Assembly (NCBI RefSeq): GCF_030013205.1
Contig: NZ_CP122648.1
Length of the DNA: 64,000 nt
DNA from: Escherichia coli
GTDB lineage: Bacteria; Pseudomonadota; Gammaproteobacteria; Enterobacterales; Enterobacteriaceae
Direction: 5' to 3' (one strand)
In this document: in pieces, positions 5,653-54,346 of the stretch
How positions within the stretch are numbered: the first letter of the stretch is position 1
How the letters are laid out: the number at the start of each line of letters is the position of its first letter
Program-made: the position numbers and the translations under genes
The notes under the pieces: generated by a model
Told to the model about the DNA's origin: nothing
What the model saw: the letters and a program-made list of their open reading frames with translations, nothing else
Databases searched by the model: none

Positions 5653-5854
5653 CGAAATAATCTGGCAGTTATAAACGTTTATTTTTTTACTGTTTGTGAT
5701 CTGCTTTCCGAACTTATTAAAAAGTCTCCCGCTTCACGGAGGCTTTTGTTATTGTCCTTTGTGCTTCTCGTGAGTAAATCATCAGGGATGATGTGAAGAT
5801 TAAATGTAAAACAATTGTTTTGCTATAACAATAAATTAACTGGGAGGTTTTATC

Positions 5855-6769: not shown

Positions 6770-6869
6770 AGTAAATGCTAAAAAAAGGGAAGGTTTAAAT
6801 AAACGCTGGAATGAATAATTAACGTTATTTACGTGTTATGGGAAAAGTGAAATCAGCTCATAACATACG

Positions 6870-7035
6870 CTGACAGGTGTGGCACATTTGTGCCTGGGAA
6901 GAGGGTGAAAATCCCTCGCAGCCCCCGCTGCTGTAATGCTGACAAACCCGAAAATACCACTGATCGCGAGATTGGGAAGGTCGGGGGAGGATGACGCTAA
7001 GCCAGAAGACCAGCCTGTCAGTCAATACCAACAAC
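6870..7035 (+). promoter_or_regulatory. cobalamin (B12) riboswitch, cob operon leader
   Basis: Conserved riboswitch blocks read directly: gtgcctgggaag...gggtgaaaatccc...gcagcccccgctgctgtaa...B12 box gccagaagaccagcctg. Confidence 0.6.
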
Positions 7036-11249: not shown

Positions 11250-11325
11250 TGGCTCCTCTGACTGGACTCGAACCAGTGACATACGGATTAACAGTCCGCC
11301 GTTCTACCGACTGAACTACAGAGGA
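11250..11325 (-). tRNA. asnV: tRNA-Asn (GUU)
   Basis: Reverse complement of tcctctgtagttcagtcggtagaacggcggactGTTaatccg...ggagcca; identical to the three other Asn tRNA copies in the window. Confidence 0.9.
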
Positions 11326-13657: not shown

Positions 13658-13733
13658 TGGCTCCTCTGACTGGACTCGAACCAGTGACATACGGATTAAC
13701 AGTCCGCCGTTCTACCGACTGAACTACAGAGGA
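13658..13733 (-). tRNA. asnU: tRNA-Asn (GUU)
   Basis: Reverse complement matches the tRNA-Asn sequence exactly. Confidence 0.9.
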
Positions 13734-15481: not shown

Positions 15482-15557
15482 TCCTCTGTAGTTCAGTCGG
15501 TAGAACGGCGGACTGTTAATCCGTATGTCACTGGTTCGAGTCCAGTCAGAGGAGCCA
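15482..15557 (+). tRNA. asnW: tRNA-Asn (GUU); integration site of the island that follows
   Basis: tcctctgtagttcagtcggtagaacggcggactgttaatccgtatgtcactggttcgagtccagtcagaggagcca. Confidence 0.9.
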
Positions 15558-18935: not shown

Positions 18936-19851
18936 GAATCCCTCTGCAACAAAAACAAACAGTCTCCGGCGTGTGCTTTTTGGCTGCGCCAGAACGATAC
19001 CTTTACGCCGGAGTGGTAGTTTGTTGAGGTTTAGGGAGTTTCAGGCTGTACGCAGTACAGACTGCCTGCGAAGCAGGAGTGTCTCCGGGGCTTCTTGCCC
19101 CCCTCGGTATCGATCTTTTTCTCCTTTACTCTTAGCTGACAGCGGCCCCAAAGGGCATGTCAGACGGCGGAAATATGGCGCAGGCCAGAACTGGCGCGGC
19201 TTGTGGCGGTAAGTTGTGCGGCGTCACTTTGCTTTTTCGCTGGCGCGACCAAAGTGACGCCTCGTCTGGTGCAGGGGGTAAACGTTACGTTTCTGGTGCA
19301 GGGTGACGGTCACGCGGCAGCAAAGCCTGACGGCAATGCAGGCCGCAGCCCGTCAATGTAAGGCGCTGGTTGTCAGCAGAAGATAAAACCCGGCAAAGCC
19401 AGAGTGTCAGCCCGTAAAGCCGGGTATCTGGTGCAGTGATGGTGTATATGTACGTCAGTCTCAGATGCAGGTATTTTTGCATCCCCGGCGTTTTCAGAGA
19501 TCAACGCCGGTAAAGGATGCCATGCTGGCGAAGCCAGGCGCTTCTTTCAGACGTGAAGCGACAAAGGGACTGCCCGGAGGCAGTTTGTTGCAGGCGGGAG
19601 ACTGCGCCATTATTTCTGGTGCAGGAAGGAAAAACTGTTTCCGGGTTTAAAAGATTGTTTGCTTACCTGGTGACGGAAAAACTGCCGCGCTTCGCTTGTC
19701 TTCTCCCGGCGCGCTGCCAGCAAAAGCAGGCAGCGCGCCGGGAGAGTCTGGTTTTACTGTAACAATGCGCCTGACGGTTCAGCCATCAGGATCGGCGTTT
19801 ATGCATGAGTCTTCCGGTACGGTTGCCCCGATCATCGATGTATCTGGACGG

Positions 19852-20498: not shown

Positions 20499-21019
20499 AA
20501 GGCCGTCTACAGTGAGTGATAAATATTCCAGCCACTGGAGAGGCTAATCTCACGGGTGGTGGAACCGGACGGGGTTAGCCTTACCAGCCTCACTGACACT
20601 GGCGCGTCTTTCGACGCCCCCGCCCGATCCCGCCATTGAGATGAGACCGTGCGCGACACACAAATATTGTATCGTCAGTGAGGATCTTCAGGAGGCTAAT
20701 CCCGACGCCTGATTTTGCAGGCGCGGCGCAACAATACAATGTTCGGTAATTTTCAGCAAGAGGTTTAGCGGAAGCAGACGCACAGGAAAATACAATCACG
20801 CGATAAATATTAAATACAATTATATTTATATAAAATATATATTGAGCAATATGCAGACACTTTCCAGTAAATATCCTGTCAGTTAATTCGTCCCGTTGAT
20901 ATCAGTCAAAAAAATAAATGTAAAAAGAGCGTATTTCGTTTCATACAGTAACGTTATTTATCATTTTGTCCGGTGTCGCCAGCATCAGGCCAGATGAACC
21001 ATAAAAAAGGATATCAGCG

Positions 21020-37841: not shown

Positions 37842-37917
37842 TGGCTCCTCTGACTGGACTCGAACCAGTGACATACGGATTAACAGTCCGCCGTTCTACC
37901 GACTGAACTACAGAGGA
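37842..37917 (-). tRNA. asnT: tRNA-Asn (GUU)
   Basis: Reverse complement identical to the other Asn tRNAs. Confidence 0.9.
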
Positions 37918-44196: not shown

Positions 44197-44249
44197 TGGC
44201 GGCAGAGCAGTCACGGAGTAAAACTGATACCGCCAAACGTCACCAGAAA
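44197..44249 (-). ncRNA. dicF: DicF small RNA
   Basis: Reverse complement reads tttctggtgacgtttggcggtatcagttttactccgtgactgctctgccgcc, just upstream of dicB. Confidence 0.7.
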
Positions 44250-48983: not shown

Positions 48984-49793
48984 TCACTTAATTATTGGAT
49001 AACTCACACAAGTATGACCGTTGCTTATCGCATACATTTGGTTTCCCTTAAGATTTACAAATGGAAATGTCGTATACTCATAATTTATAGAGGTCATATT
49101 AAATGTAAGGAATTTATCTTCAAGTTCTAATTTTGTAGAGTGGGCAGGGTATGTTCCTTCATTTTTCATTGTGATAATAAAACCGATAGGAAAAAAATGT
49201 AAAGCACAAATAAATGCCACATGTCCTTCGTTCATAAATGCTACACTTTGAGCGGATATGTGCATTCTGTGTGGGTAAAACCAGTAGTAAATATCATGAG
49301 TTTCCTCAAAACTTGAATTTTTACCCAAAACATAATCCTTTAAAGGTGTATAGAAGGGGCTATCTACGGGTTCTTTTTTACAATCTTCAACTGAAGTTGC
49401 TGATAGCACGTGCCCAATCATAGCCTTAGTGAAAGATATGCTATCAAAAGGTATTCTAATGAATGGATATACATTCATACCATTCATATATCGACTTAAC
49501 TGTTCTTTAAAGGACTTTGTTACATTTTCAATTGCAACATCGAGCCCACCTAATACCTTATTGTTACAGTGGCTGCAAATGGTTCTGAAATAAGAGCCAT
49601 TTTTAGCATTTAATGGTTTAACTGGTTCCTGAATACCAAAAAATTCGCTAACTGTTTTCTGCAAAACAGGGCCTAAGGTTATGGCGCACTTTGGAGGAAC
49701 ATGATCTTTTGTGAGCAAGCCATATTTCCCACAAATATTGCAATAACCTTCAGTAATGCCATTGTGCTTCCATCGTTCACTAATTTTCGTCAT
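48984..49793 (-). CDS. HNH-nuclease-domain protein with unknown C-terminal domain; candidate defense/abortive-infection cargo
   Basis: 269 aa; N-terminal HNH signature C18-x2-C21...D30-H31...N62/N65...C73-x2-C76-N-N-K; visibly AT-rich and opposite in orientation to the flanking prophage genes. Confidence 0.6.
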   Translation of the reverse strand: MTKISERWKHNGITEGYCNICGKYGLLTKDHVPPKCAITLGPVLQKTVSEFFGIQEPVKPLNAKNGSYFRTICSHCNNKVLGGLDVAIENVTKSFKEQLSRYMNGMNVYPFIRIPFDSISFTKAMIGHVLSATSVEDCKKEPVDSPFYTPLKDYVLGKNSSFEETHDIYYWFYPHRMHISAQSVAFMNEGHVAFICALHFFPIGFIITMKNEGTYPAHSTKLELEDKFLTFNMTSINYEYTTFPFVNLKGNQMYAISNGHTCVSYPIIK

Positions 49794-50116
49794 TTTTATT
49801 CCCTCAGTAGCATAAGCTATCTATACGTTTTTTAATCCTATCAAAGATACAACTTAACGTCAGGAAAATGATAGTGTTTATCTAAGTAATACAATTAACT
49901 TCAACGCGTGACAGTCTGCTTTTCGCTAAAAGCGGACTAGAAGGTTAGCTTGCGTCGGACTTGGCGTATTTAAAGAAGTGCTGGTGGTGACTGGTTGTTG
50001 TGTTCCATTTCTACAGAACAAAATCACAGAAACTATACCCAATAGTTGTATTGAATCACTGACGAGACAGCCTCATATTTATCAGGACTGGTGTACGTCC
50101 AATACAGGAGGTTGTG

Positions 50117-50206
50117 GTGCTGGTTCTCAAATGTGCGCTGGCTATTGCTGCTGTAATGGCAATTTATTGCCTTGCTGTTGTTCTTATGGATCGCCTTTCT
50201 GATTGA
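50117..50206 (+). CDS. candidate small hydrophobic peptide (29 aa), type I toxin-like
   Basis: AGGAGG 5 nt upstream of GTG; MLVLKCALAIAAVMAIYCLAVVLMDRLSD; below the ORF-track length cutoff, read by hand. Confidence 0.3.
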   Translation: MLVLKCALAIAAVMAIYCLAVVLMDRLSD

Positions 50207-50254
50207 TTTTATATTGGCGAGGTGACGTGAGTTAAGTAGAATTGCTGCGGGTGC

Positions 50255-50683
50255 TTGAGGCTATCTTCCTCTGATGTGTCAGGCATCCTCAACGCACCCG
50301 CACTTAACCCGCTTCGGCGGGTTTTGTTTTTTCCTGGCATTCTGGTTTACAATTCGCACGCCAGCCTGAACAACTGGCACCTGCTGCGCCAGCAGAGACA
50401 ACCGATGGCGCACGATACCAAATTACACAATTCTGATAATTCAGCCGTCTTTGCCAGCAGGCACGGGCGGCGCTCTCACGCATTTAAATCTGATTGGTAC
50501 CAGCATCCCCCATGTACTGAAGAACAAGCTGAATGGCTAATTCAGTGCTGCCGCAGACACGGATACGAGATTAAGAAAGCCCTCAGCCTCGATTATCGTC
50601 ACTGGATAATCTCCGTCAGGCTTCCTTACTCCGAACGCCCACCGCGTCCGTCCCGCACATTCCAGCAACGGATCTGGAGGTAA
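50255..50683 (+). CDS. hypothetical nin-region protein (possibly YbcN-like)
   Basis: 142 aa ORF upstream of the DUF968-like gene; start may be the internal Met (MAHDTKLHNSDN...). Confidence 0.4.
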   Translation: MRLSSSDVSGILNAPALNPLRRVLFFPGILVYNSHASLNNWHLLRQQRQPMAHDTKLHNSDNSAVFASRHGRRSHAFKSDWYQHPPCTEEQAEWLIQCCRRHGYEIKKALSLDYRHWIISVRLPYSERPPRPSRTFQQRIWR

Positions 50684-50684
50684 C

Positions 50685-51740
50685 GTGCGGGTATTACTTC
50701 GACCTGTTCCGGTACCGGAACTTGGGCTGGTGGTGCTAAAGCCGGGCCGTGAATCCATGCAGGTATTTCATAACCCTCGAGTGCTGGTGGAGCCGGAACC
50801 GAAAAGCATGCGCGGTCTGCCATCCGGGATTGTTCCTGCCGTTCGCCAGCCACTGATGGAAGATAAATCATTACTGCCATTTTTCAGCGACGAACGGGTG
50901 ATTCGTGCTGCTGGCGGCGCAGGCGCATTGTCTGACTGGCTCCTGCGTCATATTAAATCCTGCCAGTGGCCTCATGGTGACTACCATCACAGTGAAACCG
51001 TCATACATCGTTACGGTACTGGCGCGATGGTATTGTGCTGGCACTGTGACAACCAGCTGCGCGACCAGACATCAGAGTCACTCGGGCAACTTGCTCAACA
51101 AAACCTGTCAGCATGGATGATTGACGTCATCCGTCACGCAATGAATGGCACACAGGAGCGGGAATTATCGCTGGCTGAATTATCCTGGTGGGCGGTCCGC
51201 AATCAGGTGGCGGACGCGCTACCGGAAGCGGTATTACGTCGTTCGCTGGGGTTGCGTGCGGAAAAAATCCGCCCAATGTACCGTGAAAGCGACATCGTGC
51301 CGGGAGAGCAGACCGCCACCAGCATACTGAAGCAGCGCACAAAAAATCTTGCGCCGCTGCCTCACGCCCACCAGCAAAACCCGCCACAGGAAAAGACGGT
51401 GGTCAGCATTGCCGTTGATCCGGAGTCACCGGCTCAGTATCTCCAGCGCCAGAAACCACAACGGGAAGAGATGCCTGTATACACGCGTTGGGTAAAAACG
51501 CAGAAATGCATGACGTGCGGTAATCAGGCAGATGATCCGCATCACATCATTGGTCATGGACTGGGAGGGATGGGAACAAAGGCTGATGATTTGTTTGTTA
51601 TTCCGCTGTGCCGTAAATGTCATAACGAACTGCACGCCGGGGTAAAAGATTTTGAAGAAAAACACGGCAGCCAGCTGTTGTTGCTGATTCGTTTTTTAAT
51701 GCACGCGAGAAATTCGGGTGTCCTGAAGTGGAAAGCATGA
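50685..51740 (+). CDS. nin-region protein with C-terminal HNH-like zinc motif (DUF968-like)
   Basis: 351 aa; C-terminal CMTCGNQADDPHHIIGHGLGG...PLCRKCHNELH. Confidence 0.55.
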   Translation: MRVLLRPVPVPELGLVVLKPGRESMQVFHNPRVLVEPEPKSMRGLPSGIVPAVRQPLMEDKSLLPFFSDERVIRAAGGAGALSDWLLRHIKSCQWPHGDYHHSETVIHRYGTGAMVLCWHCDNQLRDQTSESLGQLAQQNLSAWMIDVIRHAMNGTQERELSLAELSWWAVRNQVADALPEAVLRRSLGLRAEKIRPMYRESDIVPGEQTATSILKQRTKNLAPLPHAHQQNPPQEKTVVSIAVDPESPAQYLQRQKPQREEMPVYTRWVKTQKCMTCGNQADDPHHIIGHGLGGMGTKADDLFVIPLCRKCHNELHAGVKDFEEKHGSQLLLLIRFLMHARNSGVLKWKA

Positions 51741-52106
51741 ATGACTGAACGCATAGAATTTGTTTTGCCTTACCCGCCGACGGTGAATACCTACTGGCGA
51801 CGTCATGGCAATACGTATTTCATCTCGGAAGCCGGAAAGCGTTATCGCCGTGATGTGGCGCTAATTGTTCGCCAGCAGCGGCTGAAATTAAGCCTGTCCG
51901 GAAGGCTGGCGATAAAGATTATTGCAGAGCCACCGGATAAGCGCCGCCGCGACCTGGACAATATCCTGAAGGCACCACTGGATGCGCTGACGCATGCCGG
52001 ACTACTTATAGACGACGAGCAGTTTGATGAAATCAATATTGTGCGCGGTCAGCTCGTTCCTGGTGGGCGGCTGGGGATAAAAATCACAGAACTGGAGTGC
52101 GCATGA
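51741..52106 (+). CDS. rusA: Holliday junction resolvase RusA
   Basis: 121 aa with RusA motifs ...PDKRRRDLDNILKAPLDAL...; directly upstream of Q. Confidence 0.85.
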   Translation: MTERIEFVLPYPPTVNTYWRRHGNTYFISEAGKRYRRDVALIVRQQRLKLSLSGRLAIKIIAEPPDKRRRDLDNILKAPLDALTHAGLLIDDEQFDEINIVRGQLVPGGRLGIKITELECA

Positions 52107-52771
52107 ATAACCAGTATTTACAGTTTGTGCGTGAGCAGCTCATTATCGCCACCGCTGATTTGAGTGGGGCAACAAAAGGTCAGCTTGAAGCCTGGCAAGA
52201 GAATGCCATGTTCGATACAGGGCGTTACAGGCGAAAAAAAATCCGGTACCGCGATGAAGTGACTGGAAAAATGATAACGCGGGATAATCCACCAATCCCG
52301 GGAAAGCAATCGCTGGCGAAGGGGACGTCAATTCCTCTGGTCAGTCCGGTTGAGTTTTCGACATCATCGTGGCGGCGGGCTGTTCTGTCTCTTGAAGAAC
52401 ATCATAAAGCCTGGTTGTTGTGGTGTTACAGCGGGAGTATTTGTTGGGAATATCAGATCGCGATAACACAGTGGGCGTGGAATGAATTTAATACTCAATC
52501 CGGTACCAGAAAAATTGCAGGGAAAACGCAGGAACGCCTGAAAAAATTAATCTGGCTGGCGGCGCAGGCAGTAAAAGCAGAACTTTTTGGTGGGGAAGGT
52601 TATGAATACCAGGAGCTGGCATTACTGGCGGGAGTGACAACTAAAAACTGGTCCAAAACATTTACTGGTCACTGGGTTGCAATGAAACACACTTTTCATC
52701 GGCTGGATAGTGAGGCTTTATTGTTCGTGACGAGAACACGTTCAAAACAAAAGGCGGCGTTTTCACTGTAA
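52097..52771 (+). CDS. late-gene antiterminator Q-like protein
   Basis: 224 aa ORF after rusA and before a strong terminator, the standard Q position. Confidence 0.55.
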   Translation: MRMNNQYLQFVREQLIIATADLSGATKGQLEAWQENAMFDTGRYRRKKIRYRDEVTGKMITRDNPPIPGKQSLAKGTSIPLVSPVEFSTSSWRRAVLSLEEHHKAWLLWCYSGSICWEYQIAITQWAWNEFNTQSGTRKIAGKTQERLKKLIWLAAQAVKAELFGGEGYEYQELALLAGVTTKNWSKTFTGHWVAMKHTFHRLDSEALLFVTRTRSKQKAAFSL

Positions 52772-54036: not shown

Positions 54037-54112
54037 GGCCCTTTAGCTCAGTGGTGAGAGCGAGCGACTCATAATCGCCAGGTCGCTGGTTCGAATCCAG
54101 CAAGGGCCACCA
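54037..54112 (+). tRNA. tRNA with CAU anticodon (ileX/ileZ-like Ile2 or Met)
   Basis: ggccctttagctcagtggtgagagcgagcgactCATaatcgccaggtcgctggttcgaatccagcaagggccacca. Confidence 0.7.
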
Positions 54113-54113
54113 A

Positions 54114-54190
54114 CCGCCACCAGTTCACCAAGAAAGAGTGTTAACCCTTTAAGTTGAGTGTGCGAGGTTCGAGTCCTCGGTGGCGGTCCA
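54114..54190 (+). tRNA. atypical tRNA-like gene (possible UUU anticodon; D-arm lacks GG)
   Basis: Acceptor ccgccac/gtggcgg, T-arm cgagg-ttcgagt-cctcg, 3' CCA; anticodon loop cctttaa has C at position 33. Confidence 0.4.
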
Positions 54191-54192
54191 GT

Positions 54193-54268
<76 letters not shown>

Positions 54269-54271
54269 TAT

Positions 54272-54346
<75 letters not shown>

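Follow-up and report, generated by a model that had tools for sequence, protein, structure and literature searches.

Introduction

Hok/Gef proteins (PF01848) are small, prophage-borne type I toxins of about 50 residues with an N-terminal transmembrane helix, a conserved Cys, and a periplasmic domain, and their genes are marked by an overlapping frame (mok), an antisense RNA (sok), and the tac and fbi elements at the 5' and 3' ends of the mRNA that fold back on each other. TisB, ShoB, DinQ, ZorO, Ibs, and Ldr/Fst are shorter type I toxins, in a size class of about 19 to 35 residues, with one hydrophobic helix and a polar or charged end, and are accompanied by divergent or overlapping sRNA genes. 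Many small hydrophobic peptides are toxic when overproduced. Others of similar size serve the cell: AcrZ, MgtS, MgrB, PmrR, KdpF, and CydX are small regulatory inner-membrane proteins of Escherichia coli that act by helix-helix contacts. Temperate phages also carry accessory genes known as morons, which consist of an autonomous promoter and an ORF inserted between phage backbone genes, as exemplified by lambda bor/lom and HK97 gp15.

Here, we describe a 29-codon ORF found in a stretch of 64,000 nucleotides of E. coli DNA (RefSeq assembly GCF_030013205.1, contig NZ_CP122648.1), hereafter called the window. Like the Hok/Gef proteins, its predicted product is small, has an N-terminal transmembrane helix and a conserved Cys, and is borne by prophages, and in most loci the small gene directly adjoins hok itself. 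It differs from them in having 29 residues rather than about 50, no periplasmic domain, and no match to PF01848, and its gene lacks an overlapping frame and a detected antisense RNA; the 5'/3' fold-back elements present in the window are not its own but belong to a deleted hok neighbor. The TisB, ShoB, DinQ, ZorO, Ibs, and Ldr/Fst toxins share with it their size class, the single hydrophobic helix, and the polar or charged end, but the peptide matches none of these families, no divergent or overlapping sRNA gene is detectable beside it, and its leader is short and unstructured with a strong, exposed Shine-Dalgarno sequence. The likeness to AcrZ, MgtS, MgrB, PmrR, KdpF, and CydX lies in the similar size, the single transmembrane helix, the ordinary promoter and Shine-Dalgarno signals, and the apparent tolerance of the cell for the product, whereas there is no homology to these proteins and the small gene resides on mobile elements and is missing from the genome that represents E. 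coli in the one-genome-per-species scan. As in a moron, a compact predicted promoter-plus-ORF unit with sharp homology boundaries sits next to a cargo hotspot, and its presence varies among related prophages, being intact in 44 of 114 loci sampled by way of hok. Unlike a moron, it has no terminator of its own and is far smaller than those described, and its promoter is a predicted one. By analogy, the peptide resembles the small single-helix membrane proteins of enterobacteria, would be packaged like a phage moron, and falls in none of the families tested.

Position and predicted product of the small ORF

The window carries a Qin-like lambdoid prophage, with the DicF RNA at positions 44197-44248. 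An identical stretch is present in porcine ETEC-type genomes, and the gene order in the window was transferred from the RefSeq annotation of one such identical genome. Genes for a YdaT-family protein, a 356-aa hypothetical protein, and a DUF977 protein lie 5' of a gene for a 269-aa hypothetical protein (48984-49793, minus strand). An unannotated gap of ~600 bp separates the latter from the gene for a 92-aa hypothetical protein (50405-50683), after which come the genes for DUF968 (50685-51740), RusA, and Q (52103-52771). The small ORF is located within this gap and thus sits in the nin region, ~2 kb 5' of Q and outside the late lysis cassette.

The ORF extends from a GTG start at 50117 to a TGA stop at 50204-50206 on the plus strand (50117-50206) and encodes MLVLKCALAIAAVMAIYCLAVVLMDRLSD. 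A Shine-Dalgarno sequence, AGGAGG, is found at 50106-50111, 5 nt 5' of the GTG. A preliminary description of this DNA, made from the sequence alone, had proposed a 29-codon ORF behind an AGGAGG, and the frame given here confirms it; the start of the interval that it reported, 50063, falls within the predicted promoter and outside the ORF. A second GTG, one codon earlier (50114), was used as the start in the ORF listing and was rejected. Homologues have GTC, ATC, TAT, or GTT at that codon, and we therefore take 50117 as the real, conserved start.

The Kyte-Doolittle mean over 19 residues reaches its maximum, 2.70, at residues 6-24 of the 29-residue peptide, the GRAVY value of the whole peptide is 1.81, and the C-terminal tail, DRLSD, is short and charged. 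These values fit one predicted transmembrane helix with a short charged tail, as the preliminary description had supposed, and by its length and hydrophobic peak the product is of the small, membrane-inserting type seen in type I toxin-antitoxin systems. Its membrane topology is uncertain because a 34-aa variant of the peptide has an acidic N terminus. The allele of B strains reads MLVLKCTLAIVAVMAIYCLVIVLMDHLSD and is deposited as ACT43394.1, which we take to be the BL21(DE3) record, and as ACT39199.1.

Comparative evidence for a coding frame

An ORF preceded by a Shine-Dalgarno sequence is, by itself, within chance: the window holds four cases of AGGAGG followed by a start codon and an ORF of at least 25 aa, compared with 2.3 +/- 1.6 in first-order Markov shuffles. 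Support for the frame comes instead from the comparison of related sequences. A scan of IMG/VR with a pattern spanning codons 16-25 yielded 115 usable phage-contig copies, representing 24 distinct nucleotide alleles of the ORF, and only sites outside this pattern were used when codon periodicity was tested. Every one of the 115 copies has 29 codons and zero indels, and start and stop are both kept in 113. Variable sites outside the search pattern are distributed 14, 6, and 2 at codon positions 3, 1, and 2, respectively (binomial p = 0.0035), and the amino acid changes among the copies are all conservative (A/V/T, V/I/L, M/V/I, D/E, R/H, and L/F). Pairwise Nei-Gojobori (NG86) dN/dS among six diverged alleles ranges from 0.10 to 0.55 at dS values of 0.15 to 2.2, with the estimates drawn from the few sites of a short ORF and from alleles that are related and recombining. 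When all six frames were compared as a control (seven alleles, mean dN over mean dS), the ORF frame had the lowest ratio, 0.22, and the other frames ranged from 0.39 to 1.42.

More distant relatives show the same pattern of retention. Among 1.8 billion representative proteins, a profile search detected members that are 54-70% identical to the peptide (MLAALKGFVAILAVVAIYCLVVVLMDRLSD, MLVLVLKGALAIAAVAVIYCLVIVLMDRIFE, and MSDDISLAMEGALAVVAVVGVYCLVVFLMDRLGN), and these alleles retain the ORF, the Shine-Dalgarno sequence, and the C-terminal motif. Within the class whose tail reads 'LMERLSD', two sub-alleles are separated by 8 synonymous versus 3 amino acid differences (hand count). Decayed copies were found in two prophages. 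In one, the ORF is reduced to its final 7 codons, which are fused behind queH; in the other, the promoter and codons 1-11 are gone and the otherwise invariant Cys is mutated. Both behave as expected for released constraint.

Two other frames at the site were considered as genes and rejected. The Cys-rich 74-aa ORF exists as an open frame at 49978-50202, in a different frame from the 29-codon ORF, but it has a dN/dS of 1.42, variable sites that fall on its first codon positions, and an unstable length (23 to 114 aa across homologues), and its exact product was not found in a collection of 15 billion proteins. The preliminary description had dismissed this product as a frame artifact, and this is borne out. 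The antisense frame annotated in phage HannyBb has a dN/dS of 0.52, with variable sites at its first codon positions. We also observed that other loci have a second hydrophobic frame (...WPEAFTTVGIAMAVALVVYSICRWG) at this position, which the window does not; most sources annotate this frame as the C terminus of DUF551 proteins.

One may ask whether the 29-codon frame is a chance opening in DNA conserved for some noncoding reason, such as control DNA upstream of hok or a flank for recombination at the cargo hotspot. The chance-level frequency of such ORFs in the window would agree with this, as would the missing annotation in RefSeq and the lack of a transcription start site (TSS) at the predicted position in Shigella differential RNA-seq (dRNA-seq), both described below. 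Conserved noncoding DNA, however, would not be expected to vary with codon periodicity and to have its lowest dN/dS in exactly this frame, nor to keep start, stop, and Shine-Dalgarno sequence at dS up to ~2 without an indel in 115 copies, and the ORF is preserved even where hok is gone. We give this explanation little credence. From the allele comparisons, we conclude that protein-level purifying selection acts on the 29-codon frame, so that the small frame singled out in the preliminary description is also the constrained one; it is very probably a real gene, with a tiny membrane peptide as its product.

Predicted promoter, leader, and boundaries of the cassette

A putative sigma-70 promoter precedes the small gene on the plus strand, with a -35 element, TTGAAT, at 50051-50056 and a -10 element, CATATT, at 50074-50079, 17 nt after the -35. 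The -35 element is TTGAAT or TTGAAG in 92 of the 115 copies, and the -10 element is found in 112 of them as well as in the distant allele L132 and in the allele of pINV, the Shigella/EIEC virulence plasmid. Both hexamers and their 17-nt spacing persist in at least five diverged allele classes with largely different spacers, as can be seen from the alleles of the window (TTGAAT - CACTGACGAGACAGCCT - CATATT), HannyBb (TTGAAG - TAACGAGCACGAAGACA - CATATT), L132 (TTGAAG - CCGGGAAGGGGCGGCTA - CATATT), L223 (TTGAAG - CAAGGAAGAGGTTGCCA - CATATT), and pINV (TTGAGT - CAGTTGAGATACAAATA - CATATT). Because the hexamers agree with the consensus at 8 of 12 positions, which is under the threshold of our promoter scan, the predicted promoter was not listed by that scan.

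Transcription from this site would give a 5' untranslated region of ~33 nt (50084-50116, plus strand), which contains the Shine-Dalgarno sequence. The hexamer AGGAGG is found in 93 of the 115 copies, and a purine-rich Shine-Dalgarno sequence is present in essentially all of them. The consensus fold of the leader is weak, at -17.6 kcal/mol, its covariation term amounts to only -0.96, and no supported helix sequesters the Shine-Dalgarno sequence. A LexA box of the CTG-N10-CAG type, sought by eye in the leader, was rejected for its wrong spacing. Together, the strong, exposed Shine-Dalgarno sequence and the constitutive-looking predicted promoter suggest that the cell tolerates native levels of the peptide.

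Homology between allele classes begins at the -35 element (exactly there in HannyBb-type loci) and ends ~15 nt past the stop codon, and these sharp ends indicate that the conserved unit is a promoter-leader-ORF cassette of ~170 bp. Past the stop codon, no terminator was found before the hok promoter, and the hok terminator is the first that transcription would reach. The cassette forms the right edge of a variable cargo site. Cargo to its left depends on the prophage and consists of the 269-aa hypothetical protein in the window and of AIPR, a HEPN protein, QueH, ORF6N, DUF551, HigBA, or a restriction-modification pair in others.

This setting bears on the possibility that the product is a small lysis protein or is holin- or antiholin-like and contributes to host lysis. 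A single transmembrane helix with a charged C terminus would suit such a role, and the neighboring toxin family has been linked to it, since HokW was reported to aid phage release (PMC8621323). We nevertheless regard a lysis function as very improbable, as the gene lies in the nin region 5' of DUF968, RusA, and Q rather than in the late lysis cassette, its predicted promoter appears to be of an early or lysogenic type, and no PHROGs lysis family matches the peptide.

Comparison with type I toxins

The preliminary description likened the product to type I toxins and small lysis proteins. The general build stands, but the remainder of the likeness is not supported, given that no toxin family is matched, no conserved antisense promoter or structure was found with the gene, and the location is in the nin region. 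Were the peptide a new type I toxin, it would form pores or depolarize the membrane and be silenced by an antisense RNA encoded in cis or in trans. Its 29 residues, very hydrophobic single helix, and charged tail are in keeping with this, as are the linkage to a known type I locus, hok/sok, and the toxicity of many overproduced peptides of this kind. Searches of Pfam and NCBIfam (both at E <= 10), PHROGs, and PADLOC, which include known short-toxin families, however, returned no family match for the peptide (the lone PHROGs match, at E = 0.74, is at chance level). Moreover, with homology ending at the -35 element and ~15 nt past the stop, a separate conserved sRNA gene would have no space, and the short leader (~33 nt predicted, with a weak fold) and unsequestered Shine-Dalgarno sequence are unlike the long or structured, translation-inert leaders of tightly controlled type I toxin mRNAs.

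An antisense RNA was sought on the minus strand of the cassette, where neither a conserved promoter nor a conserved structure was found; the conserved fold of this strand amounts to -4.9 kcal/mol with 8 pairs, and Rfam searches at permissive thresholds gave chance-level matches only. The sole antisense promoter-like site in the window, listed by the promoter scan at 50235-50206, was rejected. Its -10 element is TAAAAT in the window and TGAAAT in most alleles, which have thus lost the critical A.

Transcript starts around the pINV copy are available from a published dRNA-seq data set of one strain, Shigella flexneri M90T (PMC7132871). In this strain the ORF occupies 90908-90997 on the minus strand of CP037924.1, and the TSSs reported nearby are 90709 and 90726, which belong to icsP, and 91318 (PMC7132871, Table S3). 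No opposite-strand TSS was recorded between 90219 and 91397, an interval that spans the pINV copy. On the same strand, no TSS was recorded at the predicted position of ~91027, and the nearest one, 91318, lies 321 nt upstream of the ORF. DNA near the pINV copy is reported to be silenced by H-NS (PMC10164555). The M90T data argue against an antisense RNA there and provide no confirmation of the predicted promoter. On the sequence comparisons, a canonical antisense-controlled type I toxin-antitoxin system is not supported, and we consider a new type I toxin unlikely.

Relation to hok/sok

The sibling genome W13-16 is 100% identical to the window apart from 336 extra bp that carry mok, hok, and sok. 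By this alignment, the window has lost its hok/sok core through a 336-bp deletion, the junction of which is a CCTC microhomology at 50268-50271. A hok remnant of four pieces is left on the plus strand, the junction being counted as one. The first piece is an orphan hok mRNA promoter, TTGGCG-17-TAGAAT (50214-50242), which was identified by the promoter scan and aligns with the intact hokD promoter of W13-16 and other prophages. It is followed by the first ~20 nt of the hok mRNA, the translational-activator element (50249-50271), which was placed by alignment with W13-16 and ends at the deletion junction, and by the 3' end of the former hok mRNA, comprising the fold-back-inhibition element and an intrinsic terminator (50272-50333; stem at 50306-50323 plus a T run). 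In the predicted fold, the hok ends that survive, 5' and 3', are base-paired to one another, and the terminator hairpin comes after them. The stop codon of the small ORF is located 7 nt before the hok -35 element.

A close association with hok is seen throughout the family. The start of hok lies 210-212 nt past the small-ORF stop in 96 of the 115 IMG/VR copies, and the three distant alleles (54-70% identical) are also found directly 5' of a HOK_GEF gene. We therefore considered whether the cassette is a partner or cis-regulator of hok/sok, either through a peptide that modulates Hok in the membrane or through read-through that alters hok mRNA or Sok levels, for which the missing terminator between the ORF and the hok promoter would provide a route. 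A reverse sample, anchored on the 5' end of the hok mRNA, comprised 114 usable loci (101 new ones and 13 already known ORF carriers). The ORF is intact in ~39% of these (44/114) and present as remnants in ~12% more, which again favors an association, and the remaining loci have none. About half of the comparable hok loci have no intact ORF, which makes the cassette dispensable.

Separation in the other direction was found as well. Hok is missing beside 19 of the 115 ORF copies, including those of the 'LMERLSD'-tail class, and downstream of the pINV copy nothing is left of hok but a decayed promoter and 5' end, yet the ORF is intact and constrained in these copies and in the window. Judging from this distribution, the cassette and hok are separable in both directions. 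Hok also shows ~98% identity among loci in which the small peptides differ from one another by 30-46%. With Hok nearly constant while the peptides diverge, the linkage looks like a shared position in the phage backbone and not like co-evolution. The published hokW-sokW system was reconstituted without an upstream ORF, and neither that paper nor the Pas-sRNA preprint mentions one. We judge a role as hok/sok partner or regulator to be quite unlikely. Derivation from the toxin gene itself was also rejected, since the peptide has no profile similarity to Hok that would mark the small ORF as a truncated hok paralogue.

Distribution and annotation

A 251-nt query around the ORF has matches in 2648 of 5426 complete E. 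coli genomes, and at least 80% of the query is matched, at 80-100% identity, in 1701 of these. The ORF itself is found in about one-third of complete E. coli genomes, where it is carried by temperate phages, and it also occurs in E. albertii. Homologues in other lambdoid prophages, for which the preliminary description had suggested a search, were found both in the 115 IMG/VR copies and in the sequenced phages Tritos (100% identical), Evi, mEp460_ev081, and HannyBb. Using tblastn, the ORF was found on 143 plasmids, 135 of which are of the Shigella/EIEC pINV type. When one genome per bacterial species was scanned with a degenerate pattern, E. albertii was the sole match, and the E. coli representative was without the ORF. 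From these searches the family looks confined to Escherichia/Shigella, and, judged from the species-representative scan, the ORF appears to be absent from K-12.

The preliminary description had called the peptide unannotated. This holds for RefSeq/PGAP, as there are no RefSeq features under the ORF region in any of 40 sampled genome matches, but several GenBank, Prokka, and UniRef records do name the peptide. Depositors have called it 'conserved hypothetical protein' (E. coli B REL606) and 'membrane protein' (several E. coli records). The S. flexneri copy is an 'Uncharacterised protein' (UniRef A0A0M1UIT1) and a Prokka CDS in the M90T paper. RefSeq also has the 34-aa variant, annotated in its usual style as 'MULTISPECIES: hypothetical protein'. 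A full-text literature search for the peptide strings returned no match.

A candidate accessory membrane peptide

Taken together, it seems reasonably likely to us that the ORF is a genuine gene for a small inner-membrane peptide, forming an accessory cassette of prophages whose product acts in the membrane. To judge from its alleles, this cassette is maintained under purifying selection in lambdoid prophages of Escherichia and on the Shigella/EIEC virulence plasmid. The peptide would be made in the lysogen from its own promoter and, with co-oriented genes upstream, might also be made from early-rightward phage transcripts. In the window, the orphan hok terminator would end the transcript at a length of ~250 nt. 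The product would insert in the inner membrane as a single helix, with the conserved Tyr-Cys-Leu and Leu-Met-(Asp/Glu)-Arg motifs placed towards the C-terminal membrane boundary, and may act through helix-helix contacts as an accessory, moron-type membrane peptide that is tolerated at its native level. It would not serve as the toxin in a canonical type I system under antisense control.

A bolder interpretation is that the peptide represents a new class of prophage membrane effector that is tied to hok/sok, tuning Hok killing or phage release, or that it is a type I-like toxin without a local antisense RNA. Either would explain why such diverged versions are fixed 7 nt before the hok promoter, but we regard this as a long shot and prefer the accessory membrane peptide.

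The small ORF is widespread, lacks annotation in RefSeq, and adjoins two well-studied loci, hok/sok and icsP. Although it is carried by about one-third of complete E. coli genomes, by inducible phages, and by the virulence plasmid of Shigella, its 29-codon form is missed by the RefSeq pipeline, and, with its apparent absence from K-12, small-protein surveys in that strain could not have found the peptide. The family is thus a candidate addition to annotation profiles. Its fixed position beside hok/sok raises the question of whether phage-borne hok loci have an extra component, and the same may be asked of the pINV copy within the intensively studied region upstream of icsP. Even if the peptide should prove inert, it would still be a clean case of a real small ORF supported by comparative evidence alone.

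A homologue of the small gene on virulence plasmids

The 29-codon gene, which encodes a predicted single-helix membrane peptide, has an intact homologue, MLVLKGTLAIAAVMTIYCLIVVLMERFSD, on Shigella and EIEC virulence plasmids, where the start codon of icsP lies approximately 290 bp downstream of it. On pWR100 of S. flexneri M90T, the homologue occupies positions 90908-90997 of CP037924.1 on the minus strand (3001-3090 of L136, one of the related loci that we compared with the window). Its reading frame begins with ATG and is preceded by AGGAGG and TTGAGT-17-CATATT; downstream lies the 5' region of a hok gene in a decayed state. Relative to the icsP TSS, the plasmid homologue spans -288 to -199, with that TSS on one side and the remote H-NS region on the other. 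Published dRNA-seq data for S. flexneri M90T include a novel TSS at 91318 on the same strand as the homologue (PMC7132871); no TSS was found in these data for the homologue's own predicted promoter.

Remodeling of the neighboring hok/sok locus

The type I toxin locus hok/sok beside the small gene (window 50214-50333) has lost a 336-bp core comprising mok, hok, and sok, with CCTC microhomology at the deletion site, and is intact in sibling genomes that are otherwise 100% identical. The hok promoter, about 20 nt of 5' end sequence, the fold-back element of the 3' end, and the terminator are all that is left, and this remnant could still yield an RNA of about 85 nt. An 11-nt inverted repeat (50065-50075 and 50256-50266; 91% complementary) has one arm in the small gene's promoter spacer and the other in the 5' element of the hok mRNA; the repeat is limited to window-type alleles and may be due to chance.

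Several related loci have a second hydrophobic reading frame, ending in '...M(T/N/S)WPEAFTTVGIAMAVALVVYSICRWG*', which is absent from the window. Examples are L223, L226, L238, and L222; in L222 it covers positions 217-408 of the 450-nt stretch preceding hok. In about 20% of hok loci, its stop precedes the 5' end of the hok mRNA by 42 nt; in other loci, the frame is located upstream of the 29-codon gene at a distance of about 190 nt. In most sources this sequence is annotated as the C-terminal tail of DUF551 proteins of 121 aa, so it may represent their membrane anchor and not an independent small ORF.

Cargo and RNA genes in the window

The variable cargo slot to the left of the small gene holds a 269-aa protein of unassigned function (phrog_21495; 48984-49793, minus strand), and in other prophages AIPR, HEPN, QueH, HigBA, or restriction-modification genes. 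The protein contains CxxC...CxxC motifs and had no match in PADLOC; its gene is a candidate defense or accessory gene.

Three tRNA genes cluster downstream of the Q antiterminator gene (54037-54343), an arrangement shared with many lambdoid and Stx-type prophages. A cobalamin riboswitch (113.8 bits; 6858-7032) and a match to the sRNA STnc230 (5711-5794) fall in the chromosomal portion of the window. Four tRNA matches with identical scores (11253-11325, 13661-13733, 15482-15554, and at 37845), together with an EFASI RNA (18991-19118) and a C4 antisense RNA, a P1/P7/P4-type immunity RNA (20552-20640), both within the first 40 kb, hint at additional integrated elements or at tRNA attachment sites that are repeated.
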